A DNA stretch of 64,000 nt, from positions 1,860,001 to 1,924,000 of the forward strand of contig CM035360.1 in the NCBI GenBank assembly GCA_020137815.1, in the 5' to 3' direction. Positions 1-57,480 of this stretch are shown here, one piece after another. Each line of letters starts with the position of its first letter. Positions within the stretch are counted from its first letter, which is position 1. The position numbers were made by a program, and so were the translations under genes. Under the pieces are notes generated by a model, which worked only from the letters and a program-made list of their open reading frames with translations, made no database searches and was not told where the DNA came from. The DNA comes from Hormiphora californensis (Eukaryota; Animalia; Ctenophora).

Positions 1-668
1 CTGGGACAGTAAACAGTCACACAGCCAAGTCTCGCCAACCAGCCAAGAAAGCATAGTGCCGAATCGATGCGGATCATCCTTTTGCTACCAGATTGTCTTC
101 TGTCTAATGGTCCCAGCCACATCATATACAGTGGCATGGCAGGTAGTATGTGAGATCTGATCCTTAGTGTAATGATCTGATCCTGGGTGGGTTGATCTGC
201 GATCCAATCTAATGACGGATATTTTTGGCCTAATCAACATTTTACATGCATGATCAAGTTTAACCCCTTTTCGCATCATGATATAGTAAACAATGTTTAC
301 TAAACATGTTAACTCCGTCCTGCCTTATAATAGGGGCAATAGATTTTAAGTTGGGAAGAGGGGTCAGCCTTACCACTAGAACACTGAAAATTTAGAATTT
401 ATTCTTCCAAACTTTTCTGCCACTTTTATGTTCTTCATCCCTTGATCTTTTGTTCCTCTGAATGACGTTACTAACACCTCGTCGCTCAAGCACCTACTAG
501 TATGCTAAGGTGTTGAATTCCAGTCTTGAATCTCGAATCTACCGCGTGGGCCAATAAAAAGGGAGGGTCTAAAATCTTAAATTTCTCTGTAGCTAACCTC
601 TCGTGACACTTTCTCAATCCAGTGTTCTACCACAAACTTCGCTATGTTTTTGTAGCAGCTAAAATGAG

Positions 669-3600
669 ATGACTCTCTTTGTTTTCGTGTGTTACGTAGT
701 TGTCGTCGCTAGAGGACTTTTCGATGATAACGATGGTGGGTGTCCGATAGCAGTCGACAATGGGTTTTTGGTTAGGTCATGCCAAGACCAAGAAGTTTCA
801 TCCTGGGATGGCTTTCTTATGAAATGCCTTAACTCTTCCACCATGTACTACAAAAAGTTTACATTTGACATTTCCGACAGAAAAATGAAATCCTATGTAA
901 CGACTTTGTGCCCTAACGATTCTATCCAGTATCAGGCTTGCGGAAGTGGCAGTTTCGTGCCCTTGTACGATCCCGCTATAAACCTCTTCCAAACATCCCC
1001 CGTGTGTGGGAAGTTGTGTTACGAACATGACATGGATATGTACGGGTTTCACATGTCATCTCAAACATGTCCCGGGGCTCATAATTATAGTCATGGTCGA
1101 GTTAGGAAAACCATCTCCACCGTTGAGGGCGACATTATTACGATCTTGATTAAAGAAGGAGGCATATGTGACGGTCGTTGTGATGAAGTGGAGCTGGAAG
1201 GAAACATAGCGGCACCTACGTTGACATGTGTTGATGAAAAATCTTGTAATGGATATAATTATGGGGCTGTGGCTAAGCAAGAATATGGTTATGTCTTTAC
1301 TCCCTTCAACGATTTACTCGAACTGATTTCTCTCTCTGTGATAAAGCCTAAGAATAACATGAACACTTGTTCTGATTTTCCGCTTCATAACGCATCACGT
1401 TGCTTTATTCCCTTACCACACTCAACTATATATCTATGTAGTTATGTTGGTGTATCTTATTGTCATGACGGTTTAGACCAGACAAACTGTTCGGATCCAG
1501 CAAAGATTGCCGGTTCGTGCCTTATCGGCGGATATCTCTCTACAGTTTCCGTTTATATTCTCTGTCAGGAGAAGTCAATGTTGTGTGATGATGATATGCA
1601 CAAAAAGTGCCCAACGATTAACCGGTATTGCACCATTCATAAGCATCAGTTATGCAATGGGCAAGATGACTGTGCTATGGGTGCAGATGAGCGGAAGGCG
1701 ACGTGTCTTAAGCTCACCCAACGATCGTGTGTTCGTAGTTTTAGCCAAAATCAGGGTATTCTTAGGATTCCAGTGGACTGGGTCCAGGATGGAGATGTAG
1801 ACTGTCTTGACGGGATAGATGAAAAGGCTAACTGGCAAACGTGCGGCAAAGGCATCAGGAGGACAATTAAATGGTCGACTAAGAAATGTACCAATGTCTT
1901 CCTCTGCAAACATAACATGGAAAATTTTTTAGAGGCCACCCTTTTATGTTCCTTTCCCTCAAACTGTGACGAAGAAGTGTGCCGCATGGCTAAAAGCAGG
2001 CCACAAATATCAAAACAGATGCTAAGCACCAGCCTAACAGAAGGAATAAAACTCAAGAGTTCAGTTTGCACAAAAGGCATTCAATCTATCCTTCTTCTCA
2101 CAGACCAAATTTGTCGATCTAAAACGTTCCATCATCCCTTCCATCTGTTCTTCGGTAAAAACTTTACAACCAAATTAGTTTTTCCGACTACAAAACGCGA
2201 TTGTAGGTACTTGTACGGTGAAGCATATGTGTTTTACAGCTGTTCAGGACTTTGCTACAACACACCGTGTCCCTTGAAAAGACCCATCCTTCATAACACT
2301 TGTAGCAACCTCAGAAACACCTTTTATTCTCTCAACTTCGAGCTTGGCTCAATTACCGTTGTACAAAAGTCTCGTGAACGGTTCCACAACAACTTCTTTG
2401 TTTGTAAAAACACAAAATGCGTCCTGTTTGAGAAGGTGTGCGATCTTGTTGATGACTGTGGGGACAGGTCCGACGAGGAGGAATGTACGAACAACTTCCA
2501 GTGTTCTGATAAGTCCGGATTCTTAGCTTTGAGTCAGAAGTGTGATGGAAAGATTGACTGCAAGGACTTCTCTGATGAATGTAATGAGAGTTGTAGGAGG
2601 AAAGCTGTAAACAGTAATGCCATTTTGGGAGTTGCCTTTGTCATGGGAATTACAGGGTTCGTTTTTGGAATTGGTGGACTTATTAAGAACACCAAACAGA
2701 AGTCGGAAAAGAGTGGCGAATTCATCAATCAAGCCATGGTCCTGATGATTTCGTTTGGAGATCTACTGACATCTGTTTATCTCCTTACCCTCACTATAAT
2801 CCACTGGATCCACGGTTCCGGGTTCTGTGAGTATCAAATTGAATGGATTAGTGGAGCCCCTTGTACCATCATTGGAGTTTTGAATAGCATTGGATCATCC
2901 ATTTCTTCACTTGTGATGGCCTTAGCCAGCTGCTTCCGACTCCATGGTACAGTAATGGCCCTTCGATACCGCCGTTCAAAGAAGGTTACTCTGAAGCTGA
3001 AGATAAATTTAGGTGTATTACTCGCGGTTGTCACATCGATATCTTTAGCAGTATCTACTTTTCCATTGTTCGACACTTTCAATGAATGGTTTGTCAATGG
3101 ACTAGTCTTTGAAAGAGGCTTTACACTTTTTCTTGGAGTGATGGATAAAAGTCAACTGCTGAAGATTGTTCGGGGTTACTATGGAAGCCACGAAACCAGA
3201 CGAAGTCAGTCTGACAACACTGTGTCTTGGAACACATATCAAGAAATGATTTCTGAGATGTTTTCCCAGGATTATGATCCGGTAAGGGGCAAAAGGCTGT
3301 CTTTCTACGGTAACGACCCAGTGTGTATGTTTAAGGCATTTGTCCTGTCGGATGACCCACAAATCATTTTCGTATGGGCATACCTCAGCTTCCATTTTCT
3401 CTGCTTTTTATGTGTAGCGATATGCCATGGGATGATTGCAGTTCTCGTTAAAAGATCACATATCCAAAGTACCAGGACGTCCAGCTCACTCAATTGCAAT
3501 GTCTCTTTGATCTGCCTAACTGATTTTTGCTGCTGGATGCCCTTCCTTATCTGCTGCATCCTCCACACAGCTGAGGTTGTTGATATGTCACCGTGGTACC

Positions 3601-4094
3601 AGATCTTCTCCCTTAACATTCTCCCCCTCAACTCTGTACTGAATCCCGTTTTGTGCAGTGGTGTAGTAGCAACGATTTGGAACTACTTTAATAGTGACCA
3701 AAATGCTGATGGCGCTCGTGATGTCGCTTCTGAAGATGCTCCTGAAGATGCTCCTGATGTCGCTTCTGAAGATGCTCCTGAAGATGCTCCTGATGTTGCT
3801 CCTGATGTTGCTCCTGAAAATGTTTCTGAAGATGCTACTTATTTTGCTCCTGTAGATTTTCACGATCTCCCTCCTGATGTCACTTCTGAAGATGCTCCTG
3901 ATGTTGCTTCTGAAGATGCTCCTGATGTTGCTCCTGAAGATGCTCCTAAAGATGCTACTGACGTTGCTCCTGAAAATGTTTCTGAAGATGCTACTTATTT
4001 TGCTCCTGTAGACTTTCACGATCTCCCTCCTGATGTCGCTTCTGAAGATGCTCCTGAAGATGCTCCTAATGTTTCCCCTTATTTATGCTCCTGA
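669..4094 (+). CDS. Intronless LDL-receptor class A repeat + 7TM rhodopsin-family GPCR (GRL101/LGR-like, no obvious LRRs), intact copy
   Basis: 1141-aa ORF with a hydrophobic signal peptide, several LDLa motifs (CDLVDDCGDRSDEEEC, CDGKIDCKDFSDEC, CNGQDDCAMGADE) and a 7TM region with LGR-type motifs (TDFCCWMP, LPLNSVLNPVL). The C-tail is acidic and repetitive. Confidence 0.9.
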   Translation: MTLFVFVCYVVVVARGLFDDNDGGCPIAVDNGFLVRSCQDQEVSSWDGFLMKCLNSSTMYYKKFTFDISDRKMKSYVTTLCPNDSIQYQACGSGSFVPLYDPAINLFQTSPVCGKLCYEHDMDMYGFHMSSQTCPGAHNYSHGRVRKTISTVEGDIITILIKEGGICDGRCDEVELEGNIAAPTLTCVDEKSCNGYNYGAVAKQEYGYVFTPFNDLLELISLSVIKPKNNMNTCSDFPLHNASRCFIPLPHSTIYLCSYVGVSYCHDGLDQTNCSDPAKIAGSCLIGGYLSTVSVYILCQEKSMLCDDDMHKKCPTINRYCTIHKHQLCNGQDDCAMGADERKATCLKLTQRSCVRSFSQNQGILRIPVDWVQDGDVDCLDGIDEKANWQTCGKGIRRTIKWSTKKCTNVFLCKHNMENFLEATLLCSFPSNCDEEVCRMAKSRPQISKQMLSTSLTEGIKLKSSVCTKGIQSILLLTDQICRSKTFHHPFHLFFGKNFTTKLVFPTTKRDCRYLYGEAYVFYSCSGLCYNTPCPLKRPILHNTCSNLRNTFYSLNFELGSITVVQKSRERFHNNFFVCKNTKCVLFEKVCDLVDDCGDRSDEEECTNNFQCSDKSGFLALSQKCDGKIDCKDFSDECNESCRRKAVNSNAILGVAFVMGITGFVFGIGGLIKNTKQKSEKSGEFINQAMVLMISFGDLLTSVYLLTLTIIHWIHGSGFCEYQIEWISGAPCTIIGVLNSIGSSISSLVMALASCFRLHGTVMALRYRRSKKVTLKLKINLGVLLAVVTSISLAVSTFPLFDTFNEWFVNGLVFERGFTLFLGVMDKSQLLKIVRGYYGSHETRRSQSDNTVSWNTYQEMISEMFSQDYDPVRGKRLSFYGNDPVCMFKAFVLSDDPQIIFVWAYLSFHFLCFLCVAICHGMIAVLVKRSHIQSTRTSSSLNCNVSLICLTDFCCWMPFLICCILHTAEVVDMSPWYQIFSLNILPLNSVLNPVLCSGVVATIWNYFNSDQNADGARDVASEDAPEDAPDVASEDAPEDAPDVAPDVAPENVSEDATYFAPVDFHDLPPDVTSEDAPDVASEDAPDVAPEDAPKDATDVAPENVSEDATYFAPVDFHDLPPDVASEDAPEDAPNVSPYLCS
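3720..4070 (+). repeat. Coding minisatellite (12-bp GATGCTCCTGAA-like units with a higher-order block) encoding DVASEDAPEDAP; second copy at 10642-10992
   Basis: Tandem repeats visible directly in the DNA and the protein. Confidence 0.9.
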
Positions 4095-4820
4095 TGTCCC
4101 GTTTGAAGATGCTGATATCGCCCCTGGAAGTTATCAACGGTGATGCATTTCTGCTAAAAGCCCCGAATCATTACCTTACCTACAGTTCCCGAACAGGTTC
4201 CGACTCACGAATGAACAGCAAAACAATCACGTATAGCCTGAGAATGGTTCAGTGGACACATTAGACTCTAAGCTTTGTTCTTTTGATTTGAATGTGCGGA
4301 GCAAGGAAACAGTGCCAAGCGACTAACTTTTGATATGCTTGATTTTTTTCCTTGTTTGAAGTTACATAAAAATTGCTTTCTTTCTGAAGATGCTTTGATT
4401 GTGCAAATTTTACGTTTACTTTCAAACTGAAACTGTTTTTTCTTCTTGTACTACACCTTCTAACGGTGTTCTCCATAGCAGAGTTCACCCAAGTCCAAAA
4501 TTTCGAACTGATATCATCCGATTTAGAAAACACGGAATCATGGTGTTTCTAGTTTTTCAAGAACCGAAAATAAAACATTCAAATCAGCAAGTGTTTGGCT
4601 TGGTTTTGGTTAAGTGGTTTACCTGATTTATCCCCCAGTCTGAAACAATCACAATACACTGCAGTGGCCATTTTATTTGAGTCTGCTCACTCTCCTCTTA
4701 AAAATTCTTTCAACAAGCACACTCACACAGCTGTATCATGGAGAAGTTTAAAATTAAGAGTCAATCATTACATATTTAAAATGTTCTATAATATCTCGCT
4801 CAAAAATCAAACATTCTCTT

Positions 4821-5425
4821 TCACATCTTTGTGTCTGTTGTCGTGACAGTTTCTGCTGGTGAAACCGTGAATCTTCGTGCCGTTTTTCGCAAAGAGGAAG
4901 ATCTCTGTACCGTACTTTCAGGCATCTTGAAAATCTTTGGACTGAGGGCAGCATAAACTACCCCGTTGTACAGCGACAAACCTACGGGCATACACACGGT
5001 AAAGAGGAAGTTAGGAAGTAACATTTCTGAGACATCGTGGGTGAAGGACTCTGTAAGGTGCATCTTCACACTGGCTAGGTATACGATAACATAGATCAAA
5101 CTGCCCAGATTAGTCACCAGTACTTTAACACTGGTCCGGGGTTTAACACGACAAACAGCGCTACTGTTTGATCGTTTTAACAGGTGTCCAATGGTCAGGA
5201 CTGATGTGATGAAGGCCAACACTTGGAGTCCAACACTGGGAAGGAGAATGTGGGAGTGGGAAACGGGACCGTTTTCACTTATTGTCGTTACAGTCTGAAT
5301 ATAGGCTACATATCTTAACTTCGGACCGGCCGATAGTATAATGTACCCCATAAGTCCAATGACATAACCCACGAACAGGCAGATAGGTACTATCATGTAC
5401 TTGCGTCCCAGGTGCGAAAACGGAA
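4821..5425 (-). pseudogene. 5'-truncated copy of the rhodopsin-type GPCR (lacks TM1-3)
   Basis: Identical to 11738-12342; identity stops at ...gcgaaaacggaa (5425), where LINE sequence begins. Confidence 0.85.
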
Positions 5426-5985
5426 CCGTCCCTTTGATAGAGTGGGGGTTATGCTAGACGTCTGGGGTAGGGGAGCACCTTTGCAGATTCGGAATACGGG
5501 AGCCAGATTGGGCAGCTGTATGTGATGATGGGGGTTATTAGAGCGTCAAAAAGCTTGAACGCTGCCCAAGCCGAGAGGGCGTCTCCATTCACTGTTTTCC
5601 TCAGAAGAAAGACTGCTTTACTCCCTTTGGTGGAGAGGTTAGTAATTGCTGTCTTCATACTTCCGCTGGCAGAGAATACAATTCCCAGATAAGTGTACTC
5701 TTTTACCGAATCAAGTATTTTACCGAGTAGCTGGAATCCATGGCTGTCCTTCAGAACTCTGCCGGAAGGATTGAAGACTAGGATCTTGGTCTTTTCTATG
5801 TTTATCTCTAACTCCCAGGTGGAAGAGTAATTTCCCAAGATAGAGAGGAGGCTATCCATCGAACTTTTATTGAGTGATAGCAGCACTATGTCGTCAGCCC
5901 ATAAGAGGTGGTTGACGTCGACGCCCCCTAGTACTGGAAATAGTCCTTTCACGTTGTATAGGAGTTTGGGTATCCAAATCAATTA
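5426..5985 (-). mobile_element. Non-LTR retrotransposon (LINE) reverse transcriptase fragment
   Basis: ORF 5449-5982 has LLWADDIVLL (YADD motif), INIEKTKILVF, YTYLGI and LFDALITPIITYSCPIW. Confidence 0.85.
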
Positions 5986-6812
5986 GCGGGTTTGGTTTGG
6001 TTAGGGTTGCTCATCTGGGACAGTAAACAGTCACACAGCCAAGTCTCGCCAACCAGCCAAGAAAGCATAGTGCCGAATCGATGCGGATCATCCTTTTGCT
6101 ACCAGATTGTCTTCTGTCTAATGGTCCCAGCCACATCATATACAGTGGCATGGCAGGTAGTATGTGAGATCTGATCCTTAGTGTAATGATCTGATCCTGG
6201 GTGGGTTGATCTGCGATCCAATCTAATGACGGATATTTTTGGCCTAATCAACATTTTACATGCATGATCAAGTTTAACCCCTTTTCGCATCATGATATAG
6301 TAAACAATGTTTACTAAACATGTTAACTCCGTCCTGCCTTATAATAGGGGCAATAGATTTTAAGTTGGGAAGAGGGGTCAGCCTTACCACTAGAACACTG
6401 AAAATTTAGAATTTATGCTGTTGTTTTTAATTTGTATAAACTGCTCGCCGGCTAACCCCGTGCTAGAGCTCTCTGTTGATCTCGGACCAAGGGACAGGAT
6501 ATCTATCTTGTCATCAATCTACTAAACTCGCTATAATGCAATGCTCCCTCAATTTATTTGTGGTAGAGCTCTCTTGTGGATCTGAGGACACGTACGACGT
6601 CTGGTTTTGAGGAACAATGATCAAAATGGAATACAGATTACACACTCCAAGAAAGGGAAATGGTTGACGTACTTTGAAACTGGGGAATCTAGAGGTCCAA
6701 GATACGAAGATGTGACGTGAAATGGAGCTACTAATTCTAACTAGGAACGTTTGACTGACTGGTTTTATGAAGGAGTCATACTTTATCCCAATTCATTCTC
6801 ATTTTGATCTTT

Positions 6813-6866
6813 GTCTACTGATGATTGGTGCCTCCTCGTGGGGCACCATGAAACATGTGTATAGAC
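6813..6866 (+). ncRNA. Type I hammerhead ribozyme
   Basis: gtcta-CTGATGA-t-tggtgcctc-ctcgt-ggggcacca-t-GAAA-c-atgt-g-TA^-tagac: complete core, 5-bp stem I, 9-bp stem II, minimal stem III with palindrome ACATGT. Predicted cleavage after 6861. Confidence 0.9.
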
Positions 6867-7272
6867 CTTAAAAACTGCTGTTGTTTTTAATTTGTATAAA
6901 CTGCTCGCCGGCTAACCCCGTGCTAGAGCTCTCTGTTGATCTCGGACCAAGGGACAGGATATCTATCTTGTCATCAATCTACTAAACTCGCTATAATGCA
7001 ATGCTCCCTCAATTTATTTGTGGTAGAGCTCTCTTGTGGATCTGAGGACACGTACGACGTCTGGTTTTGAGGAACAATGATCAAAATGGAATACAGATTA
7101 CACACTCCAAGAAAGGGAAATGGTTGACGTACTTTGAAACTGGGGAATCTAGAGGTCCAAGATACGAAGATGTGACGTGAAATGGAGCTACTAATTCTAA
7201 CTAGGAACGTTTGACTGACTGGTTTTATGAAGGAGTCATACTTTATCCCAATTCATTCTCATTTTGATCTTT

Positions 7273-7326
7273 GTCTACTGATGATTGGTGCCTCCTCGTG
7301 GGGCACCATGAAACATGTGTATAGAC
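7273..7326 (+). ncRNA. Type I hammerhead ribozyme (second unit)
   Basis: Identical to 6813-6866; predicted cleavage after 7321. Confidence 0.9.
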
Positions 7327-7631
7327 CTTAAAAACTGCTGTTGTTTTTAATTTGTATGAATTTATTCTTCCAAACTTTTCTGCCACTTTTATGTTCTTCA
7401 TCCCTTGATCTTTTGTTCCTCTGAATGACGTTACTAACACCTCGTCGCTCAAGCACCTACTAGTATGCTAAGGTGTTGAATTCCAGTCTTGAATCTCGAA
7501 TCTACCGCGTGGGCCAATAAAAAGGGAGGGTCTAAAATCTTAAATTTCTCTGTAGCTAACCTCTCGTGACACTTTCTCAAGCCAGTGTTCTACCACAAAC
7601 TTCGCTATGTTTTTGTAGCAGCTAAAATGAG

Positions 7632-10600
7632 ATGACTCTCTTTGTTTTCGTGTGTTACGTAGTTGTCGTCGCTAGAGGACTTTTCGATGATAACGATGGT
7701 GGGTGTCCGATAGCAAGTTTCATCCTGGGATGGCTTTCTTATGAAATGCCTTAACTCTTCCACCATGTACTACAAAAAGTTTACATTTGACATTTCCGAC
7801 AGAAAAATGAAATCCTATGTAACGACTTTGTGCCCTAACGATTCTATCCAGTATCAGGCTTGCGGAAGTGGCAGTTTCGTGCCCTTGTACGATCCCGCTA
7901 TAAACCTCTTCCAAACATCCCCCGTGTGTGGGAAGTTGTGTTACGAACATGACATGGATATGTACGGGTTTCACATGTCATCTCAAACATGTCCCGGGGC
8001 TCATAATTATAGTCATGGTCGAGTTAGGAAAACCATCTCCACCGTTGAGGGCGACATTATTACGATCTTGATTAAAGAAGGAGGCATATGTGACGGTCGT
8101 TGTGATGAAGTGGAGCTGGAAGGAAACATAGCGGCACCTACGTTGACATGTGTTGATGAAAAATCTTGTAATGGATATAATTATGGGGCTGTGGCTAAGC
8201 AAGAATATGGTTATGTCTTTACTCCCTTCAACGATTTACTCGAACTGATTTCTCTCTCTGTGATAAAGCCTAAGAATAACATGAACACTTGTTCTGATTT
8301 TCCGCTTCATAACGCATCACGTTGCTTTATTCCCTTACCACACTCAACTATATATCTATGTAGTTATGTTGGTGTATCTTATTGTCATGACGGTTTAGAC
8401 CAGACAAACTGTTCGGATCCAGCAAAGATTGCCGGTTCGTGCCTTATCGGCGGATATCTCTCTACAGTTTCCGTTTATATTCTCTGTCAGGAGAAGTCAA
8501 TGTTGTGTGATGATGATATGTACAAAAAGTGCCCAACGATTAACCGGTATTGCACCATTCATAAGCATCAGTTATGCAATGGGCAAGATGACTGTGCTAT
8601 GGGTGCAGATGAGCGGAAGGCGACGTGTCTTAAGCTCACCCAACGATCGTGTGTTCGTAGTTTTAGCCAAAATCAGGGTATTCTTAGGATTCCAGTGGAC
8701 TGGGTCCAGGATGGAGATGTAGACTGTCTTGACGGGATAGATGAAAAGGCTAACTGGCAAACGTGCGGCAAAGGCATCAGGAGGACAATTAAATGGTCGA
8801 CTAAGAAATGTACCAATGTCTTCCTCTGCAAACATAACATGGAAAATTTTTTAGAGGCCACCCTTTTATGTTCCTTTCCCTCAAACTGTGACGAAGAAGT
8901 GTGCCGCATGGCTAAAAGCAGGCCACAAATATCAAAACAGATGCTAAGCACCAGCCTAACAGAAGGAATAAAACTCAAGAGTTCAGTTTGCACAAAAGGC
9001 ATTCAATCTATCCTTCTTCTCACAGACCAAATTTGTCGATCTAAAACGTTCCATCATCCCTTCCATCTGTTCTTCGGTAAAAACTTTACAACCAAATTAG
9101 TTTTTCCGACTACAAAACGCGATTGTAGGTACTTGTACGGTGAAGCATATGTGTTTTACAGCTGTTCAGGACTTTGCTACAACACACCGTGTCCCTTGAA
9201 AAGACCCATCCTTCATAACACTTGTAGCAACCTCAGAAACACCTTTTATTCTCTCAACTTCGAGCTTGGCTCAATTACCGTTGTACAAAAGTCTCGTGAA
9301 CGGTTCCACAACAACTTCTTTGTTTGTAAAAACACAAAATGCGTCCTGTTTGAGAAGGTGTGCGATCTTGTTGATGACTGTGGGGACAGGTCCGACGAGG
9401 AGGAATGTACGAACAACTTCCAGTGTTCTGATAAGTCCGGATTCTTAGCTTTGAGTCAGAAGTGTGATGGAAAGATTGACTGCAAGGACTTCTCTGATGA
9501 ATGTAATGAGAGTTGTAGGAGGAAAGCTGTAAACAGTAATGCCATTTTGGGAGTTGCCTTTGTCATGGGAATTACAGGGTTCGTTTTTGGAATTGGTGGA
9601 CTTATTAAGAACACCAAACAGAAGTCGGAAAAGAGTGGCGAATTCATCAATCAAGCCATGGTCCTGATGATTTCGTTTGGAGATCTACTGACATCTGTTT
9701 ATCTCCTTACCCTCACTATAATCCACTGGATCCACGGTTCCGGGTTCTGTGAGTATCAAATTGAATGGATTAGTGGAGCCCCTTGTACCATCATTGGAGT
9801 TTTGAATAGCATTGGATCATCCATTTCTTCACTTGTGATGGCCTTAGCCAGCTGCTTCCGACTCCATGGTACAGTAATGGCCCTTCGATACCGCCGTTCA
9901 AAGAAGGTTACTCTGAAGCTGAAGATAAATTTAGGTGTATTACTCGCGGTTGTCACATCGATATCTTTAGCAGTATCTACTTTTCCATTGTTCGACACTT
10001 TCAATGAATGGTTTGTCAATGGACTAGTCTTTGAAAGAGGCTTTACACTTTTTCTTGGAGTGATGGATAAAAGTCAACTGCTGAAGATTGTTCGGGGTTA
10101 CTATGGAAGCCACGAAACCAGACGAAGTCAGTCTGACAACACTGTGTCTTGGAACACATATCAAGAAATGATTTCTGAGATGTTTTCCCAGGATTATGAT
10201 CCGGTAAGGGGCAAAAGGCTGTCTTTCTACGGTAACGACCCAGTGTGTATGTTTAAGGCATTTGTCCTGTCGGATGACCCACAAATCATTTTCGTATGGG
10301 CATACCTCAGCTTCCATTTTCTCTGCTTTTTATGTGTAGCGATATGCCATGGGATGATTGCAGTTCTCGTTAAAAGATCACATATCCAAAGTACCAGGAC
10401 GTCCAGCTCACTCAATTGCAATGTCTCTTTGATCTGCCTAACTGATTTTTGCTGCTGGATGCCCTTCCTTATCTGCTGCATCCTCCACACAGCTGAGGTT
10501 GTTGATATGTCACCGTGGTACCAGATCTTCTCCCTTAACATTCTCCCCCTCAACTCTGTACTGAATCCCGTTTTGTGCAGTGGTGTAGTAGCAACGATTT

Positions 10601-11016
10601 GGAACTACTTTAATAGTGACCAAAATGCTGATGGCGCTCGTGATGTCGCTTCTGAAGATGCTCCTGAAGATGCTCCTGATGTCGCTTCTGAAGATGCTCC
10701 TGAAGATGCTCCTGATGTTGCTCCTGATGTTGCTCCTGAAAATGTTTCTGAAGATGCTACTTATTTTGCTCCTGTAGATTTTCACGATCTCCCTCCTGAT
10801 GTCACTTCTGAAGATGCTCCTGATGTTGCTTCTGAAGATGCTCCTGATGTTGCTCCTGAAGATGCTCCTAAAGATGCTACTGACGTTGCTCCTGAAAATG
10901 TTTCTGAAGATGCTACTTATTTTGCTCCTGTAGACTTTCACGATCTCCCTCCTGATGTCGCTTCTGAAGATGCTCCTGAAGATGCTCCTAATGTTTCCCC
11001 TTATTTATGCTCCTGA
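7632..11016 (+). pseudogene. Duplicate LDLa-GPCR with a 41-bp frameshifting deletion near the 5' end; residual ORF 7741-11016 lacks the signal peptide
   Basis: ATG at 7632 matches ATG 669, but gtcgacaatggg...gaccaaga (41 bp) is missing at ~7715. The rest is identical apart from H>Y at 8521. Confidence 0.8.
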
Positions 11017-11737
11017 TGTCCCGTTTGAAGATGCTGATATCGCCCCTGGAAGTTATCAACGGTGATGCATTTCTGCTAAAAGCCCCGAATCATTACCTTA
11101 CCTACAGTTCCCGAACAGGTTCCGACTCACGAATGAACAGCAAAACAATCACGTATAGCCTGAGAATGGTTCAGTGGACACATTAGACTCTAAGCTTTGT
11201 TCTTTTGATTTGAATGTGCGGAGCAAGGAAACAGTGCCAAGCGACTAACTTTTGATATGCTTGATTTTTTTCCTTGTTTGAAGTTACATAAAAATTGCTT
11301 TCTTTCTGAAGATGCTTTGATTGTGCAAATTTTACGTTTACTTTCAAACTGAAACTGTTTTTTCTTCTTGTACTACACCTTCTAACGGTGTTCTCCATAG
11401 CAGAGTTCACCCAAGTCCAAAATTTCGAACTGATATCATCCGATTTAGAAAACACGGAATCATGGTGTTTCTAGTTTTTCAAGAACCGAAAATAAAACAT
11501 TCAAATCAGCAAGTGTTTGGCTTGGTTTTGGTTAAGTGGTTTACCTGATTTATCCCCCAGTCTGAAACAATCACAATACACTGCAGCAGTGGCCATTTTA
11601 TTTGAGTCTGCTCACTCTCCTCTTAAATTCTCTCAACAAGCACACAGCTGTATCATGGAGAAGTTTAAAATTAAGAGTCAATCATTACATATTTAAAATG
11701 TTCTATAATATCTCGCTCAAAAATCAAACATTCTCTT

Positions 11738-12742
11738 TCACATCTTTGTGTCTGTTGTCGTGACAGTTTCTGCTGGTGAAACCGTGAATCTTCGTGCCGT
11801 TTTTCGCAAAGAGGAAGATCTCTGTACCGTACTTTCAGGCATCTTGAAAATCTTTGGACTGAGGGCAGCATAAACTACCCCGTTGTACAGCGACAAACCT
11901 ACGGGCATACACACGGTAAAGAGGAAGTTAGGAAGTAACATTTCTGAGACATCGTGGGTGAAGGACTCTGTAAGGTGCATCTTCACACTGGCTAGGTATA
12001 CGATAACATAGATCAAACTGCCCAGATTAGTCACCAGTACTTTAACACTGGTCCGGGGTTTAACACGACAAACAGCGCTACTGTTTGATCGTTTTAACAG
12101 GTGTCCAATGGTCAGGACTGATGTGATGAAGGCCAACACTTGGAGTCCAACACTGGGAAGGAGAATGTGGGAGTGGGAAACGGGACCGTTTTCACTTATT
12201 GTCGTTACAGTCTGAATATAGGCTACATATCTTAACTTCGGACCGGCCGATAGTATAATGTACCCCATAAGTCCAATGACATAACCCACGAACAGGCAGA
12301 TAGGTACTATCATGTACTTGCGTCCCAGGTGCGAAAACGGAAAGACAATCTGGACAAAACGTTCAATGGCCATTACGGATGTGATGATACTTGGTGTGAG
12401 GGCCAGCACCCACGCCACCACGGAGTAAACCTGGTCTGGCACCGTGAAGTCCTCCACGAAGCACGTGCTGTTTAATAAGGCCTCCTCCCCAGCACCCAGT
12501 TCACAGACCCGCTCACCCACCATTCCTATCTCAACTCCTGCTTTGATGGGAATCACCAGACTAGTTGCCATGTCAACGATGGCCAGACATTTGAAACCGA
12601 AGGTAGCTGCGTTGTAGCGTCGCTTGTGGTTGTACAAGTAGATAAGGGAGTTGAGGAATGTAGCTAGTACCATGGTGGTGAGCAGGAAAATGACAATGAG
12701 GACATCAGGAAAGGAAAATCCACCGGTACTGAATAGTGCCAT
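11738..12742 (-). CDS. Intronless rhodopsin-family (class A) GPCR
   Basis: 334 aa with seven hydrophobic segments, TM1 N (FLNSL), TM2 LAIVD, TM3 MAIERF and TM7 NGVVY. Confidence 0.85.
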   Translation of the reverse strand: MALFSTGGFSFPDVLIVIFLLTTMVLATFLNSLIYLYNHKRRYNAATFGFKCLAIVDMATSLVIPIKAGVEIGMVGERVCELGAGEEALLNSTCFVEDFTVPDQVYSVVAWVLALTPSIITSVMAIERFVQIVFPFSHLGRKYMIVPICLFVGYVIGLMGYIILSAGPKLRYVAYIQTVTTISENGPVSHSHILLPSVGLQVLAFITSVLTIGHLLKRSNSSAVCRVKPRTSVKVLVTNLGSLIYVIVYLASVKMHLTESFTHDVSEMLLPNFLFTVCMPVGLSLYNGVVYAALSPKIFKMPESTVQRSSSLRKTARRFTVSPAETVTTTDTKM

Positions 12743-12821
12743 ATCTGGTGAAGGGCTAAAGTTATGTTTGGGTTTAGGTTTAGAGTTAGAGAATACAGGG
12801 TAACAGTAATATTATAATATA

Positions 12822-19909: not shown

Positions 19910-22900
19910 TTCTCACTGTTGTCTGTGGTTGCTAGGGAGCACATCAGAGGGAGAGCACCGCGACTTCCAACCTGAGACGCGAGACATGTGCTCTTGGCTC
20001 AGGGGTAGAGACAATTACGTAGGGCGCGACAACCACGTTATGTTTGAAGTCTAGAGTGCGGCATTGTGTTGTGGCGCGCGCACACATTTCTTAAGTTTGA
20101 ACCTGGACGGACAGACGAACAGTCAGACAGACAAACAGACAGACATCTGGGGTCATCCTGATATTATTTAATTGACATGAATTTATTGACACCAATTCTT
20201 TCCTCAGATCCATTCGATGTCGCGGATCACATTGAGGTACCTTGGAAAGTCTCTCGATCTTTCATCTGGGGTTTTCGGTGATGCGATCCAGGTATAATTA
20301 TAGGACCCCTTCTTGGACTTTTTTTAGGCTACCCAGTACCCCTGCTCTAGAAAATAATCGTTGCACTGAATATCGTTGGATATGACGGGTAACTCCCCCT
20401 GTTGCCCAACAACACTCAGTGTTTTACAGAGCCCTGCAGAGCTTGAGGGAATCTAAAACATCCTGATGATTGGTGTCCCCTCGTGGGACATCATGAAACA
20501 TGTGTATATAATTATACCTTTAAAACTACCGTTGTTTTTAATTTGTTTGGAATCTAAAACCTCCTAAAATCCCCCACCCTTGTTCACAGTTGTCAACATG
20601 GTGTTGAGTACTCAACAACTCCATACCCCATGTCAGGTAATGATAATGCAGCAACACTGCGGAGGAAACACAGTCTGTGTCTTCCAGGGACTTGTTTCAC
20701 CTAATGAGTGTTTTACTTTCACATCCCGTCGACACAGAGATGCACCATTTGGGATTACAATCTACACCGGCAGTATGATGGTACGTGAAACAAGTGATTT
20801 TAGTTTATACTACTACTTAGCTTAGTAGTTAGTACCCATTGCCATTTTATGACTGTCGTTTGAAGTATATAAATTATAAATAGCTGAATAGTGGACAGAG
20901 AGCAGCATGACAGCAAGTCTAGACTTTTTGTTATCTGTTGGTTTGAACAAGACAATATTTAGTGACTAAACCTATAATACTGTCCGGGTCTAGACAACAT
21001 GGCACTTGTCAGTAATACCAAATGTTCTGAGACTATTAGAAATTTGTCCAAGATCGAGAGGACTGTTTTCTAATTGCCCATTCCGTGTACCTATGTTGAC
21101 AGCTTCCTAATACTGAAATCCCTTCCACTTCCTAGGATACGCGAGTGAGCACGTGCTGTGAATACAAGCACAAACCTGGCCACGTTCTGGGAGGGAAAAG
21201 TGGACATTTTGCACTGGTTCGAGTTGAGGGGTGTTTGCCGTGTTACAAGTAAGTACTGCCAGGCCTTGTTGAGTTACTGTGAGGGGTGGGTGGAAAGCCC
21301 CTTACTAAATCAATCAATCAATCAATCAAAGCTACCACGGTGGGTAGTGGCACTGAGCCGAAATTATACATATAATATCATGAAAGCTTAACCACACGGA
21401 CCAAACTCGGTGAGGGTTCAGAATTGCGCAACAGGGCTAGTTGCACGAAGTCGGTAACTCTGTACTGGCCAATGCTCTGACAGAGTATGTTGGTGTTTTA
21501 TAATAGTGGGATAATAGCACGCCCTATTATCAAACAGTCGGTAGAGCTGAGAAGCTGGGTACTTCAAATATAAAATGAATTCTGTTTTATCCTTTTTGCG
21601 GTATACTCACAACTAGGATGATTCTCCGTACTCACTGAGTACTACTCAGACTGTACAATTATTCATTCGTGTATTAACCCACCCGTAATTGTTTACCACC
21701 TGTATATTGTATGTGGGGCCCGTGCTCTGGCTAGTAGTTAGCCTCATGAAATTAGTGGTGAGGGGAGAAATATAGAAACAGGGAGGGGAGAGAGAGTCTT
21801 TTGGTCAAGCATTTGATAATTAAACACCCGCATAAGATCTTGGAAATAATACATTCATTATTACGTTCCACCTCACGGCTCACCCACATAGCCTTCTCTC
21901 TCTTGTTGAGTAACAACCCCTCTCAATATTATACCCCTTTGTTCGCAAAGTAATACACAGAAAATTATTTCCCCTCTCCATTATAAATACCCCCTTGTTA
22001 CAGAGTCTAAGTACCACCCAGAAAATTATTTTCCAGGTGTTTTGCACACGTGGATGAAATCAAAAAGGAACAAAACGATGCCCATGCACAATTCCAGGCG
22101 GATGTCAGGAATGCCGTGTCGAAAGGAAAACCTGCTACTGGGGAAAGGAAGTCCAGGAAAAGTAGTTCGAGTTCTGAAGATGGGGTTAATCGGGGGAAGA
22201 GGCGAGATCGGGTGTCGAGAAAAAGTAGCTCAAGCTCGGAAGCAGCTCATGATCGCCACTTGAAACCCCGGGTAAGTAATTAATTATTGATTAACTCAAC
22301 ATGAAACAATGAAACTTTCCAATTTAATTCTCAAGCTTTCCGAACCACATGGGAAACTTTATCTTTCCATCCCCTCCTTCATATACCGCTCCCCTAATAT
22401 AACTACCCTTCCCGTGCAACGTAAATTAGAAAGGGTTGATACACACTCACATAATTATTCCTTTCTGAAAGATAATCAGCTCCAAAGAATATGTTTTTCA
22501 CACCAAAGAAAAGTTAGAAAGCTGTAATTTGTAAAAGACTGCGTAATATAATTTCAAGTTTTCAAATAAGGGAAACCCGGTTCCCCAAACTTAGTATACC
22601 CAAAGAGCTCATAGTCTTTCTTATAAAATTTATAAATAAGTTCCCGCTCGTTAGCGTCTAAAAAGTTCATGTATTGATTAACAAAATACATCGTAGCATG
22701 TTCCTCCACTCCTTGTTCCTTCCTTGAACCTGGCCAGAGAAAGTCCGCTGTTCCGGTTCGCTGCTGAATGAACGGCATGTATTCACCCATCCGTTCATAC
22801 TGGACAACTAAATCATAGGGCCAGCTACAAACCAAAATATCCAACCATTGCGGTTTGAAATGGATGTTCTCCAGATACAACCAATCTTGTAGGGGGCCTA

Positions 22901-24338
22901 TAACAAACAACCTGAAGATCTCCTCATCCCTCGCCTTGGCAGGGTAATGGATTCCCGGTTTCAGAAACTGCTCCCTCCGGAGCTGCTTGTCTCGGAACCC
23001 TGACACCAGCCTCGTTACCGGGTTCCGGATCACAACGAACTTGAAACAAGACGTGAATACTGGTTCAGGGGGTAGTTGGGGCTTCGTTTCTATGATAGAG
23101 AAGTGTCCTCCGGTTGTATTATGGACATTCACGATACCATCTATAATCTCCTGAGTAGTGTCCCCTCGTGGTAGTTTCCCATCCGCCAAATAGAGGAACT
23201 TCTTGAAGCTTGTACTGCCCGTTTTAGGGTTGGTTGTGTACAAAATATGAAATTTCTCGTTGTAAATCAGGAGACGCGGCTGTTTTGACTGGATCCACGA
23301 CTTATCTGGGTACTTCCAATTTGTCTTAATACCATCCAAATCACACTGGTTCGTGATCCTCTCCAACAGCATGTCCGATCTTTCCTGGAGTCTCTCTGGG
23401 GTATCCTCTTCCTCCTCTGTCCTCTCTGTGTAGCTGGTTCGGAGCTGGTCACCAGGGAAGATGGGAGTAGAGGGGACGGTTGAGATCAGGGATGTGGAGT
23501 TGTCAATCAAGGAGGGGGCGAGGAGGAATAGGAGGGATGCTGATAGGAACGCTGTGATCCAGAGGATAGAACACCTTTTTAATGTCGAGATTGCTGATCG
23601 GTGAAACATGTCTTTTACTGGGAGAGAGGGATATGTGTTAGGTTAGGTAAATGAGGATCTCAGAGGTCGAAAGAGGGTGTAGATTGGTGTGCGGGGGTAT
23701 CTCCTGGCATAGCTAAATTTGACTGTACTGCAAAACAGATCTCAGAAACAAGATGTGAGTGTTCTGGGAATCCTATCACACGGAATAAGCCCTAAGAGAC
23801 AACGTGGATAAAGATGAAATAGAAATAGGTAAAGGAAATAACTAACTCAGACCGTGTTTCTTTTTTCTATTTTAGAATGGAATTCGCTTCAACATGTGTA
23901 ATCCAAGTGCACGACTCAAGAAAAGATTTTAAACCCCCGGCAGCTGTTTGAACGTCCAGATCAACGCCAGGAGGGATAAAATAATAACAGCTGAAGAATT
24001 TAACTGAAAGTATTATAAATGGAGAGGTCATCATAGAAAGCTGTTGCAGTCACACACGCGTTTGGGTAGTAAAGGAGGGAATATACGGAGAGAAGGGGGA
24101 CGGAATAGAGACAACAAGAAAGTGAGAGGGACATATGGCAAACAAGAAAGTGAGAGAAACATATGGACACCAAGAAAGAGAGAGAACCATGAAAAACAAG
24201 GTGGAGAGAGAACCATGGAAGACAAGGAGGAGGGAATTAGGTGAAACAAACGGGGCCTCATGGGATGCCAACCAGCCGGGATAGCAATACAATGCGGATA
24301 ATCAGGTGCGAGCCGGCCGTCTCTTTTCTTTCTCTCTT

Positions 24339-24386
<48 letters not shown>

Positions 24387-27300
24387 TCCTAAACCCACCT
24401 TGTTTCATACAAAATGCCATGCGGCATGCAGGTCATAAAACAACAGCGCCGTATTCGGCAACATAATCAAGTCCGAAATTTTTACCTAGGCTTGATGCCT
24501 ATCTAATTTTCTCGATAAACCAGCTCGATTATATTCCACTAGGCCTAGTCTTTACACCCACCGGCCCCGGTTCAATTCATACCTGGAACCATGCCATGTT
24601 AATGTCAACAAAAACACATACTTCAGCATGCTAATAGGACAGTTTCTACATCGTTTCAGACACGGCCCCGGCCAAATCTCTCTTTCTCTCTAGGTTTCTA
24701 CATATTTTCTCAACTCTCACTCCAAGGTTCCAAAGGAATATCCCTAATGTCATTGTATACGGTCCTCTAGCAACACAAGGCAACTTATATAACCCACACT
24801 TTGTCCTTCTGCAGGTCAGAGTACGGCCGGGATCAGCACGATCAAGATCAGATCGCAACAACAAGATAGCAGCTCCTGTATCGCCCAGAGAGGAGCCGGG
24901 TGAAGCGGAGATAGAGGAATTTGAGAAATTGGTGATGTTGGACAAGAGTAATGAAAATAGGGAACAGGTAAATTATAGGATTACAGCAATTTGAGGAGTT
25001 ACGCTTTGAGTTGGTGATAAATCCCCTTTGCAGGCTTCGTTTAGCCGCGCTGTGTACCGCTAGTGTAGGGGTGACTGCGTCACCAACGCTTTGAGTGTTA
25101 TGTATATATATAGTATAAACAAAATTTTATTGATATTAGCTGTAGAAACATAGTGTAACAAAATAAGGTGTTACACAACAAAGTATAACTGCACTAACTG
25201 CAGTGCGGGCCAAGGTGCATGTGTAATATAATAGGGGACTCCGGACTCCTAACTGTCACCAACTGTTTAATAATGACGTGCTATACTGACATTAGCCGGC
25301 TTCCCTGTGCCTCCACTACTAAATATATCTCTCTTTCTAATCATCTCTCTGTCTTACTCAATCATTTGAAAGGCCTCGATCATATATTTGTCAACACTAG
25401 GTCGAGTGTCAAAGCGTGGGCATATTCAATATTGATATACATTGCTCTCATCGGTCCTAAGAAAGGAGCTAAATGAGATTCCAATTTAATCAATCACAGC
25501 TGCTACAATGTCCCATTCTGAATTGAACAGCTGTCATGATATGGTTAGAGTACAGACTGAAGTCATACTATGTACATGACCCGGTATTTCGAGTTCGGGC
25601 ACGCTACACAGTTCAGCCATATACGGCCCGTTTAGGAGAGGGAAGTCTTTTGTTATGACAGAATCATGTGACATGTATGAGACCCTTGTATGAGACTCAA
25701 TATACTGGTAGGCGGTAAATGTTAACCAGATCTGAGAGAAAACGTACGTGCAAAACCACGTTTTTGTCCATAACTCAGTTATTTCTTGACCAATTTGCAA
25801 AATCTTGGGCGCGTTGGAAAGAGGACATTGAGCTCTTTCAAATGAGCCCAAAAAACTAAAATCGGCGCAAAATGCGCGGCGTCATGGCGCAAAATGCGCG
25901 TTTTCGCCACCACGCCGCGCAATTTTCGCCAATTTTCATTTTCTTGAGCTCATTTGAGAGATCTCAATGTCCTCTTTCCAATGAGCCAAAGATTTTGCAA
26001 ATTGGTCAAGAAATGGCTGAGTTATGGGCAAAAACGAGCGAAATTCTCACAGATCTGGTTAACATTTACCGCCTACCCAATATACTATGATGGCCTCATA
26101 GAGATATATCGGGTATGTACAATTGATGAGCAGCCGTCTCAAACTCCCTTTGTTTATAGGTTGAGGAACTACTGGTACTAGATTCTTCCTCAGAAGGAGA
26201 AGAGGAGAAGATCGAACTAAAAGACGCACCTCTCCCTCAACAACCATTTCAACCTGAGGTTTGTAGCAGTGTGTGCTGTTGCACCTCCCCCGCGATGAGT
26301 ATGAACAATACAAGTAGCAGTGTGTGTTCTAGATATAATATCTACTCATGGGTTGTTAGTTAATGACTCAGAAACTCATGGGTGGAATGTAATATCGTTC
26401 CAATTCCAACCGTTAGTACAAATAGTAAACCATGTTATGTACTCAACAACAGACTGCTTGAGTCGATTTCTAAACAACTGCTGTAGTTGTATATTTCCTG
26501 CTGGCATGTCACACTTGGCACCGCTTATTGAGTCACAATCTGATCCCGTTACCTTGTTTATCGAGTCCTTCTTGCCACAGGAACCAGAAGATAAGAAGAA
26601 GGAGGAAAATGAGGGAGATTATTCGGATGATAAATTTGATGATGATGTCGATGATAAGGCTTCCATTCACAGTGAAAAATCTGATGTCAGCATCAATTCG
26701 GATGCGAGCATCAAGTCTGAGGCCAGCGCTAAGAGTAACTCCAGTGCTAAGAGCAACTCGAGTATTAAAAGTAGCTCCAGCGCCAAAAGTATTTCCAGTA
26801 TCAAGAGCAACTCTAGCGCCAAGAGTATTTCTAGCATCAAGAGCAACTCTAGCGCTAAAAGTGTTTCTAGCATCAAGAGCAACTCTAGCGCTAAAAGTAA
26901 CGCCAGCCACTCCTCTGATTCAACCATCAAGAGTGGATCCAGTACTCGGAGCATCACTTCGAACCGCAGTGTCAGTCCACTCCGAAGTGAGGACTCTCTA
27001 CAGCCCCTAGTTGACGAAGACAAACCTGCAGCAGAAGATGAAAGAGCGGTTAGTGAAGACAAATCTGCAGCCAGTGACAATGTGCAGACTGACAAAGTGC
27101 AGACTGACAAATCTGCAGCCAGTGACAATGTGCAGACTGACAAAGTGCAGACTGACAAATCTGCAGCCAGTGACAAAGTGCAGACTGACAAAGTGGAGAC
27201 TGAGAAAGTGGAGACTGAGAAAGTGGAGACTGAGAAGTCTGTAACGGATGAAAAAGTGGAGACTATAACCAATGACAAAGTGGAGACTGATAAATCTGCA

Positions 27301-31283: not shown

Positions 31284-34377
<3,094 letters not shown>

Positions 34378-35225
34378 TCAGCACACTAGCTGCCGGCTGG
34401 ACCAATTACTTTTATACTAATAAACATGATATGGTTATTGTATAATGGTTATTCAATAATGATAATGATTCAGATTTAAGTCACAAATTTGACAAAAACA
34501 AATTCGTGTACGAGAAGGGGGCACACCAAAAGGGATTCTGTGCAACTCCGCACTTGACGCCTCCATAGACGTCACCTTCTCTTCCTCTTCTACCCTACGG
34601 AACATCCTCACCCAGACCAAATCTTCGCCTCCTTCTGATAGTACTCCCAACTCCATCTACTCCATTCCCTGCCGCGACTGCCCATCTTTCTACGTTGGCC
34701 AGACCAAGCGACCAGTGAAAACCCGGATTAAGGAACACGAATCAAACTTCTACAACAACTCTCTCTACAACACCGATGGGAAGATGAAATCTGCTCCTGC
34801 TATCCACGCTCGGGAATCTGGACACACCATGGACTGGAATTCTACCTCTATCCTCTCCTCTTCTTCCTCCTGCCTCAGTCTAAATCTACTGGAACAAGCG
34901 GCTATTCACACTCTTCAACCGGCGATTAACCGAACAGATAAAGTTCCTACTGTCAACCTCCAATGGACTCACCTTCTCCCCAGGATTGCTAACTCCTTCA
35001 AACCCCGTCCTGCTGGCATCTCCATCAAACCTAGATCTCCCAAACCTGTTTCCTAATTCTCTTCAGCTCGGATCACCTCTTCTCCCTTCCCGTGGATCAC
35101 CTCCCCCATCCCCTCCTCTCGGATCGCATCTTCCTTCTCGGATCTCATCCCTTCCTCTCTCCTCCCCTCCCCGGATCCCATATCCTCTTCTCCACTACAT
35201 AAACACTTTCATTTTCATTGTTGTT

Positions 35226-35267
35226 ATAGCTGAAGACGTCTGACATAGATCAGTCGAAAGCTCCTGT
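35226..35267 (+). ncRNA. Minimal PLE-type hammerhead ribozyme; second copy at 38146-38187
   Basis: atag-CTGAAGA-cgtctgacatagatcagtc-GAAA-gc-TC^-ctgt: core with ctga/tcag stem II and palindromic AGCT in place of stem III. Confidence 0.78.
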
Positions 35268-35343
35268 TCTTAATTGAATATTAGTACTGCAAAATCGTTG
35301 TTTCTCTTTAATTGTTATACACGGTACTACCACCCTCTCCCTG

Positions 35344-37976: not shown

Positions 37977-38428
37977 TTCTCTTCAGCTCGGATCACCTCT
38001 TCTCCCTTCCCGTGGATCACCTCCCCCATCCCCTCCTCTCGGATCGCATCTTCCTTCTCGGATCTCATCCCTTCCTCTCTCCTCCCCTCCCCGGATCCCA
38101 TATCCTCTTCTCCACTACATAAACACTTTCATTTTCATTGTTGTTATAGCTGAAGACGTCTGACATAGATCAGTCGAAAGCTCCTGTTCTTAATTGAATA
38201 TTAGTACTGCAAAATCGTTGTTTCTCTTTAATTGCCTCCTTCTAGATGGTATGCTATGGTGTCCTAGTGGCGAAGCTATGCTGCAGAATAAGGCAGCGAT
38301 TTTCAGGAAAAACGCTTTGAACGCCTGCGGAACGTGGGTGAAAGGAAAAAGGAACAAAAAACATCAATTTTAATAAATTATAATAAATTACCCACACACC
38401 GTCATACTCTCATACTCCCTCTCTCTGC

Positions 38429-55600: not shown

Positions 55601-57480
55601 ATATTGTGATTTTGCGATGATATGCGTGTAATCTCGGAAGATCTAGGACATTACTTACTAGGCAACATATGGAGATAGACCATTCCTCAGAAGAAATAGA
55701 TGACAATCCTTATCGCCATGATATTCCTCACAGCCCGTAGTAATGAAAAATTACGCTGAGCACAGCTGAAATTATTGATTGAGTGTTAATTGAGAAATGA
55801 GATGATTTGCGTAGAAATGCGAGACTTTTGAGTAATTTTACGAACAAATATTGCGATTTTGCGATGATATGCGTGTAATCTCGGAAGATCTGGGACATTA
55901 CTTACTAGGCAACATATGGAGATAGACCATTCCTCAGAAGAAATAGATGACAATCCTTATCGCCATGATATTCCTCACAGCCCGTAGTAATGAAAAATTA
56001 CGCTGAGCACAGCTGAAATTATTGATTGAGTGTTAATTGAGAAATGAGATGATTTGCGTAGAAATGCGAGACTTTTGAGTAATTTTACGAACAAATATTG
56101 TGATTTTGCGATGAGATGCGTGTAATCTCGGAAGATCTAGGACATTACTTACTAGGCAACATATGGAGATAGACCATTCCTCAGAAGAAATAGATGACAA
56201 TCCTTATCGCCATGATATTCCTCACAGCCCGTAGTAATGAAAAATTACGCTGAGCACAGCTGAAATTATTGATTGAGTGTTAATTGAGAAATGAGATGAT
56301 TTGCGTAGAAATGCGAGACTTTTGAGTAATGTTACGAACAAATATTGCGATTTTGCGATGATATGCGTGTAATCTCGGAAGATCTAGGACATTACTTACT
56401 AGGCAACATATGGAGATAGACCATTCCTCAGAAGAAATAGATGACAATCCTTATCGCCATGATATTCCTCACAACCCGTAGTAATGAAAAATTACGCTGA
56501 GCACAGCTGAAATTATTGATTGAGAGTGTTAATTGAGAAATGAGATGATTTGCGTAGAAATGCGAGACTTTTGAGTAATTTTACGAACAAATATTGTGAT
56601 TTTGCGATGATATGCGTGAAATCTCGAAGATCTAGGACATTACTTACTGGGCAACATATGGAGATAGACCATTCCTCAGAAGAAATAGATTACAATCCTT
56701 ATCGTCAGGTTATTTCTCACAACCCGTAGTAATGAAAAATTACGCTGAGCACAGCTGAAATTATTGATTGAGAGTGTTAATTGAGAAATGAGATGATTTG
56801 CGTAGAAATGCGAGACTTTTGAGTAATTTTACGAACAAATATTGTGATTTTGCGATGATATGCGTGAAATCTCGAAGATCTAGGACATTACTTACTGGGC
56901 AACATATGGAGATAGACCATTCCTCAGAAGAAATAGATTACAATCCTTATCGTCAGGTTATTTCTCACAACCCGTAGTAATGAAAAATTACGCTGAGCAC
57001 AGCTGAGAATATTGAATGAGTGTTAATTGAGAAATGAGATGATTTGCGTAGAAATGCGAGACTTTTGAGTAATTTTACGAACAAATGTTGTGATTTTGCG
57101 ATGATATGCGTGTAATCTCGGAAGATCTAGGACATTACTTACTAGGCAACATATGGAGATAGACCATTCCTCAGAAGAAATAGATTACAATCCTTATCGC
57201 CATAACATTCCTCACAACCCGTAGTAATGAAAAATTACGCTGAGCACAGCTGAAATTATTGATTGAGTGTTAATTGAGAAATGAGATGATTTGCGTAGAA
57301 ATGCGAGACTTTTGAGTAATTTTACGAACAAATATTGTGATTTTGCGATGATATGCGTGTAATCTCGGAAGATCTAGGACACTACTTACTAGGCAACATA
57401 TGGAGATAGACCATTCCTCAGAAGAAATAGATTACAATCCTTATCGCCATTTAACATTCCTCACAACCCGTAGTAATGAA
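52630..57480. repeat. 247-bp tandem satellite, about 16 units, interrupted by MITE A (52681-52844) and ~600 bp of unrelated sequence (54094-54690)
   Basis: Period measured from aatcctt at 52903, 53150 and 53397. Confidence 0.95.

Follow-up and report, generated by a model that had tools for sequence, protein, structure and literature searches.

The window, a stretch of 64,000 nucleotides that was analysed as a whole, carries a 941-bp insert that we read as a non-LTR retrozyme which was mobilised by a Penelope-like element (PLE) enzyme, with a probability of roughly 0.7–0.75 as judged from the sequence. Its structure and its relatives in sequencing-run contigs support a young, dispersed, multi-copy and recently mobile retrozyme-type insertion. 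The retrozyme class, its link to PLEs and the tail mechanism have already been published; what is new here, as far as was searched, is an apparent ctenophore member.

The insert, its target site and its copies

The window begins with a near-identical repeat, of which copy 1 occupies 1-5425 and copy 2 occupies 6015-12342. Copy 2 carries 941 extra bp (6417-7357) that have no counterpart in copy 1 and that consist of two stretches of 460 bp, 100% identical to each other, followed by 21 bp matching the first 21 of the unit. The 8-mer GAATTTAT flanks the insert at 6409-6416 and 7358-7365 as an 8-bp target-site duplication (TSD), and is present once in copy 1, at 395-402, which represents the empty site; the 5' junction has a one-base ambiguity (T). 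Alignment of the two copies thus confirmed the insert, TSD and empty site that an earlier note on this DNA had described. The corresponding features are:

395-402, forward strand: empty target site in copy 1; the LDLa-GPCR start codon follows 267 bp downstream
6409-6416, forward strand: left TSD, 8 bp, from sequence comparison with copy 1
6417-6876, forward strand: putative retrozyme unit 1, 460 bp, non-coding
6877-7336, forward strand: putative retrozyme unit 2, identical to unit 1
7337-7357, forward strand: 21-bp tail, the start of a third unit, with the same end in copy B
7358-7365, forward strand: right TSD
20460-20548, forward strand: copy B, 89 bp, 5'-truncated and diverged, helix I partner lost
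41969-42031, reverse strand: copy C, 63 bp, hammerhead only, 62/63 identical

The unit has a GC content of 41.5%, and when it is circularised its longest ATG-started reading frame encodes 34 amino acids and its longest stop-free frame, on the minus strand, 92. No LTR structure was seen in the insert, and the two units show neither an internal TSD nor a mismatch between them.

Three loci of the unit, namely the main insert and copies B and C, lie within the 64-kb window. Copy B is 83% identical to the unit over 84 aligned columns, begins at the hammerhead core and is flanked by a 12-bp TSD (20448-20459 and 20549-20560); its 3' end is the same as that of the main insert, 36 nt beyond the predicted hammerhead cut (position 7357 in the main insert). 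At least four contigs of one sequencing run (X3) also exit the unit at 6898 into unlike sequences (agreement 0.58; among 24 of 483 loose ends). On these two window copies and four contigs, +36 is a shared 3' end, and the end of the tail would mark the start of reverse transcription. Copy C, for which no tail and no TSD were found, stops at +15 from the cut, 21 nt earlier than the common 3' end, and the main insert begins in the unit at +16, so that +15/+16 may be a second landmark. Copy C lies antisense in an intron of a threonyl-tRNA synthetase gene (41964-42747), 5 nt past the splice donor. Copies B and C both end within 3-4 nt of where the hammerhead core begins on its 5' side, and reverse transcription may tend to stall there. 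Both TSDs contain GAAT(T/C)TA at their start or one base from it, a motif chosen post hoc from n=2 TSDs that is found 25 times on both strands of the window.

Of the 22 sequencing runs listed, six contain at least half of the sequence words; all six were guessed to be DNA and come from one organism and two samples. Lower word shares were found for organisms B and C (0.11-0.13), for runs recorded as RNA (0.07-0.19, n=4) and for one run of organism A guessed to be RNA (0.00), the values for RNA runs being no measure of expression. Contigs of four runs (X2, X3, X5 and X6; two samples, two studies) were compared with the window. The empty-site joint, 6408 to 7358, was present in all four, and variant empty alleles or paralogues in these runs also have a single GAATTTAT, which points to an insertion and to an ancestrally empty site. 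Contig depth over the element, compared with that of the contig over 5200-5381, was 889-5127 versus 9 in X2, 46,461-127,798 versus 309 in X3, 11,787-55,512 versus 848 in X5 and 14,420-50,804 versus 604 in X6; the summed depth thus exceeds that of this single contig by factors of tens to hundreds, which do not translate into a copy number. This excess identifies the unit as a repeat family. Depth is high over the entire unit in 4/4 runs, and the family is polymorphic (6846 C>T, for example). Identical units, empty site, TSDs, further copies and depth all support the recent activity that had been claimed for the family. Very high contig depth was also seen over 7475-7565 and 5928-6109 in all four runs, pointing to other repeat families beside the site.

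The host is likely a ctenophore, judging from protein matches. The receptor gene beside the insert carries an LDL-receptor class A repeat and is 29-30% identical to homologues from Mnemiopsis; matches of up to 88% were obtained with EukProt proteins whose identifiers begin with 'sb/', which we take to be Pleurobrachia bachei gene models. The named matches are to Mnemiopsis and Bolinopsis. This intronless LDLa-repeat gene lies on the forward strand at 669-4094 in copy 1 and at 7632-11016 in copy 2, where 41 bp are missing after codon 28, putting the rest out of frame, and where the putative retrozyme lies 267 bp upstream of the start; the copy 2 gene is likely dead. A second receptor-like gene (11738-12811, minus strand) is shortened in copy 1, and a homologue search with its reading frame came back empty.

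Elsewhere in the window we noted a single-frame sulfotransferase gene (Pfam Sulfotransfer_2; 22554-23642, minus strand), a 371-bp element with long inverted ends, MITE-like, at 25707-26077, and a dispersed repeat of about 110 bp (31507-31618, 32399-32505, 45801-45914 and 47159-47272; 85-94% identity, both orientations). A 247-bp tandem satellite occupies 52848-54094 and 54688-57482, in about 5 and about 10 copies with 97-98% matches; it was considered as a second retrozyme and rejected, as no core in it is followed by a hammerhead fold.

The hammerhead motif and its predicted folding

Each unit contains a type I hammerhead core, and the previously claimed composition of the insert (two non-coding 460-bp units plus 21 bp, with one such core each) stands. 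The two cuts proposed after 6861 and 7321 are indeed predicted at positions 460 nt apart.

6802-6873, forward strand: type I hammerhead 1, core 6818-6824, predicted cut after 6861
7262-7333, forward strand: type I hammerhead 2, core at 7278, predicted cut after 7321
6614-6632, forward strand: stretch complementary to the helix I 5' strand (6795-6814), repeated at 7074-7092

The motif has a helix I of 5 bp with a possible 6-bp extension, a helix II of 7+2 bp with U.U at its base, and a helix III of 2 bp closed by a 4-nt loop. Among 5000 dinucleotide shuffles of the unit, searched on either strand, a relaxed hammerhead descriptor matched 4. A search of the unit against Rfam returned no hammerhead at the gathering score or at E values up to 10, and exact hammerhead patterns had no match in metagenome contigs and none in viral contigs. 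Helix II is paired in 3/3 window copies, among which one change is compensatory and another gives a wobble pair; covariation is not significant (171 of 500 shuffles), as the changes are too few.

Folding predictions point to a weak and partly blocked ribozyme. The active fold is less stable than the local minimum by 5.7 kcal/mol and than the free circle by 6.3, and the pairing probability of helix I is approximately 0.01 in both dimer and circle. The stretch at 6614-6632 pairs with the helix I 5' strand at -19.5 kcal/mol, which was equalled in 11 of 1000 shuffles and ranks second among 77 windows of the unit; it is predicted to block the ribozyme fold. Such blocking of helix I could protect a circle, or could simply leave linear multimers uncut. 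The circularised unit is predicted to be 62% paired at -113.8 kcal/mol, a fold no better than those of its shuffles (z of -0.93 against 60). As for a double hammerhead, the catalytic 8-bp register of helix III and an off-register one of 6 bp tie at -6.0 kcal/mol, and since the two score alike, activation of the dimer is neither favoured nor disfavoured.

Penelope-like elements, known retrozymes and the template

Non-LTR retrozymes have been described by Cervera and de la Pena in 2020 (PMC7229834) and by Li, Clavereau and Pollet (bioRxiv 10.64898/2026.07.22.740005). In the accessible parts of these texts, the metazoan members resemble the insert in having tandem non-coding units with one type I hammerhead each, a GC content below 50%, TSDs longer than 4 bp (8 and 12 bp here), no apparent LTR, PBS or PPT, and a PLE in the same genome; the insert also corresponds to the working definition in 10.64898/2026.07.22.740005, two consecutive units with complete motifs. 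At 460 bp, the unit is just over the 150-450 bp given in PMC7229834 and within the 51-972 bp given in 10.64898/2026.07.22.740005. The insert differs in its ctenophore-like host, a group not among the taxa named in the accessible text, and perhaps in its predicted circle, which is not unusually structured, whereas a highly self-paired circle would be expected of the class. An internal ribozyme-blocking stretch such as the one predicted here is reported in the available portion of PMC7229834 for plant retrozymes and viroids, and not for most animal ones. The closest parallel in that text is axolotl HHR_Amex2 (Rtz_353), in which helix II likewise has U.U at its base and a tetraloop caps a helix III of 2 bp, although helix II (7+2 bp) and the unit itself are longer here. 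The HHR_Amex2 monomer is weak in vitro (22% cut in 1 h, with the dimer cutting better), as the present unit is by prediction, and its family has circles in vivo. According to the same partly accessible source, retrozyme circles have been shown in coral, mussel and axolotl, and according to the bioRxiv text, as far as it was available, eight of nine dimers of predicted Xenopus retrozymes showed no cleavage in vitro.

Searches of the accessible literature turned up no ctenophore retrozyme, which agrees with the earlier note's unawareness of a described family; most subscription papers lie outside this body, and supplements may list ctenophore hammerheads. In the portions available, ctenophores are listed as hosts of Naiad PLEs (PMC8557442) and serve only as an analogy in 10.64898/2026.03.07.710320.

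The insert also shares several properties with endonuclease-bearing PLEs, as these are described in the accessible text of PMC11167929, PMC8557442 and PMC4209133: a partial-tandem form, a fixed 3' end near the hammerhead, a short tail, an AT-rich target and 5'-truncated copies containing only the hammerhead. In contrast to these elements, it has no coding frame or detectable remnant of one and it retains a short helix III, and its tail is 21 bp long versus 30-40. In the anole PLE, according to the part of PMC11167929 available, two neighbouring internal start sites of reverse transcription lie downstream of the hammerhead and delimit the tail between them; nicking favours 5'-ATT-3', and mutating the hammerhead does not impair insertion in vitro. 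The start lies 36 nt past the cut here, compared with 85-92 nt for the anole element, as calculated from the coordinates in that paper, and 51 nt in the PLE of the window. By analogy, the insert reads as two whole units plus a Penelope-type tail. The earlier note had neither this reading of the 21 bp nor the 3' end shared with copy B, nor the full-length PLE of the window.

The PLE of the window lies 27 kb from the insert:

34564-38234, forward strand: young full-length PLE, 1.26 units of 2920 bp
35344-37976, forward strand: PLE reading frame, reverse transcriptase plus C-terminal GIY-YIG, with one frameshift near 35700-35800, near a run of C
38146-38188, forward strand: PLE minimal hammerhead, also at 35226-35268, predicted cut after 38183

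Its pseudo-LTRs (34564-35314 and 37484-38234; 751 bp) are identical, it ends 51 nt beyond its own predicted hammerhead cut, and its TSD is short, 4-6 bp around GCCTCC. The nearest named homologues, from Bolinopsis and Mnemiopsis, are 52-56% identical, and a profile search against solved structures gave no match. The sequence ahead of its hammerhead core resembles a 3' splice site. In a related PLE locus, L012, two identical minimal hammerheads at 2934 and 5534, 2600 bp apart, show a partial-tandem layout as well. With a layout like that of the insert, the window PLE is a candidate for the type of helper involved. As a parent of the unit it was rejected: its DNA has no significant match to the unit, its hammerhead is of a different type, common to its relatives L001 and L004, and its target, GCCTCC, is unlike that of the insert. 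No partner PLE was found among 80 PLE-related loci, which counts against the reading proposed here: none has a significant match to the unit, and the 16 that contain a hammerhead by descriptor do not match it. A similarity between the flanks of the retrozyme and PLE hammerheads is weak (shuffle p of 0.03, genomic background of 0.0014, for regions picked post hoc) and is absent in the three closest PLE loci reaching that far.

In the mechanism that we propose, a PLE endonuclease would nick AT-rich DNA, as the GAAT(T/C)TA of both TSDs suggests, and reverse transcription would begin at a constant internal position, 36 nt beyond the hammerhead cut, and proceed for 941 nt over two uncut hammerhead sites. 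The likeliest single template would be a ligated 460-nt circle, read 2.05 times. The new dimer would then be transcribed by read-through and weakly cut, probably as a double hammerhead, releasing a 460-nt monomer.

The nature of the template is the least settled part of this scheme. A cut linear monomer is unfit, because a start at +36 would copy 36 nt only. Since copying crosses two uncut sites, the template must be larger than one linear monomer: a circle, an uncut multimer or one that was jumped. If the element is what we take it to be, a 460-nt circle has somewhat less than an even chance of having been the template, and the two units are identical despite a polymorphic family, as would be expected from one template read twice. 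An uncut linear multimer comes close behind on the same condition, and the sequence of one locus is insufficient to choose between the two.

Relative to the predicted cut sites, the insert is composed of 36 + 460 + 445 nt. The earlier note was right that its ends do not coincide with the cleavage site; the 5' end, however, is merely 15 nt short of a would-be third site, a distance with a chance of about 16/460 (~3.5%). At that third site, RNA cut by the hammerhead would have its 5' end. The proximity supports the possibility, which we consider real though doubtful, that the same element was copied by a PLE enzyme from a linear multimer, either uncut or cut in part, whose source would be a tandem array at another locus, with no circle involved. 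The predicted weakness and blocking of the ribozyme would fit such a template, and unprocessed, uncut linear RNA is the main substrate of the PLE enzyme in vitro in the accessible text of PMC11167929. It would require, however, a source array of at least three near-identical units, of which none was seen in the 64-kb window, and the 5' end lies not at the cut itself but where copy C has its 3' end, a coincidence that suggests a second Penelope-type landmark. The rolling-circle template claimed in the earlier note was thus not established and stands at about even odds, given that the 5' end and the predicted weak ribozyme fit an uncut linear multimer.

Alternative readings of the locus and of the unit

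The claim that the insertion took place after the duplication is not established, since the junction 5425|5426 was not seen among the contig pieces listed, so that the copies may be alleles. The empty and filled sites could then be allelic, or the assembly could contain a false duplication, in which case the insertion would be polymorphic and not dated by the duplication, and the number of units might be mis-assembled; we consider this rather unlikely. In 4/4 runs the contig over 5200-5425 continues into other sequence at 5425 and position 5318 is G, compared with A in both window copies; among the contig pieces listed for the four runs none contains 5425|5426, and among the rows listed none bridges the filled-site junction. 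The animals sequenced in these runs, however, probably differ from the assembled one, and their contigs therefore neither prove nor refute the duplication. Heterozygosity is high in ctenophores, and the two copies differ over 5425 bp by merely three substitutions, low for two random ctenophore haplotypes, and four further indels (41, 3, 2 and 6 bp). Three of these indels and one of the substitutions cluster within approximately 65 bp (4660-4723 versus 11583-11641). The interval between the copies, 5426-6014, consists of 46 unassigned bp followed by a LINE reverse-transcriptase fragment (5449-5982, minus strand). Whether duplicates or alleles, the insert is real, as a TSD together with a family-typical 3' end is not producible by mis-assembly.

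That the unit instead derives from an autonomous PLE, as its terminal part or by internal deletion, and that the dimer arose because the template was jumped or because one copy landed in the tail of another, appears improbable. The long helix II and short helix I do recall PLE minimal hammerheads as described in the available part of PMC4209133, copies B and C resemble ordinary 5'-truncated PLE ends, the tail contains AATTT, similar to the genomic target, and PLEs are able to nick their own pLTR, according to the accessible text of PMC11167929. A coding remnant, on the other hand, was not found in a six-frame comparison of the unit with 120 PLE homologues and the two frames of the window (best E value 1.9), and a PLE profile gave negative scores, the comparison covering one PLE group; the junction between the units carries no internal TSD or mismatch; and depth is high throughout the unit in all four runs.

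Mobilisation by a LINE of a satellite or SINE-like repeat whose hammerhead-like motif arose by chance is hardly credible despite the missing Rfam hit and the LINE fragment 430 bp upstream of the insert, given the rarity of the descriptor in shuffles, the helix II kept in three copies, the PLE pattern of more-than-unit length with a fixed internal 3' end, and the outcome of a search of the unit for a poly(A) tail, a simple-repeat tail, Pol III A and B boxes and tRNA, none of which was found; this outcome also led us to reject a tRNA-derived SINE with a tRNA-like head.

As far as the cited texts are accessible, circular templates for PLE copies longer than one unit were proposed in 2014 (PMC4209133), mobilisation of retrozymes by PLEs was proposed in 2020 (PMC7229834), and kinship between retrozymes and pLTRs was shown in 2026 (10.64898/2026.07.22.740005); mobilisation from circles is a proposal backed there by co-occurrence and by this kinship. 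The fullest version of our reading, in which a Penelope enzyme with a fixed internal start made more than two turns around a 460-nt circle, whose complementary strand is predicted to lock the ribozyme so that the circle survives, and which would be the first ctenophore retrozyme, recorded with its empty site beside the filled one, is tentative and, in its entirety, unlikely. If true, it would join the circle model of retrozymes to the internal start of PLEs at base resolution, and would add comb jellies to the animals with circles made by ribozymes. Because the family is young and has exact junctions and a fixed 3' end, the step of mobilisation by a PLE becomes testable.
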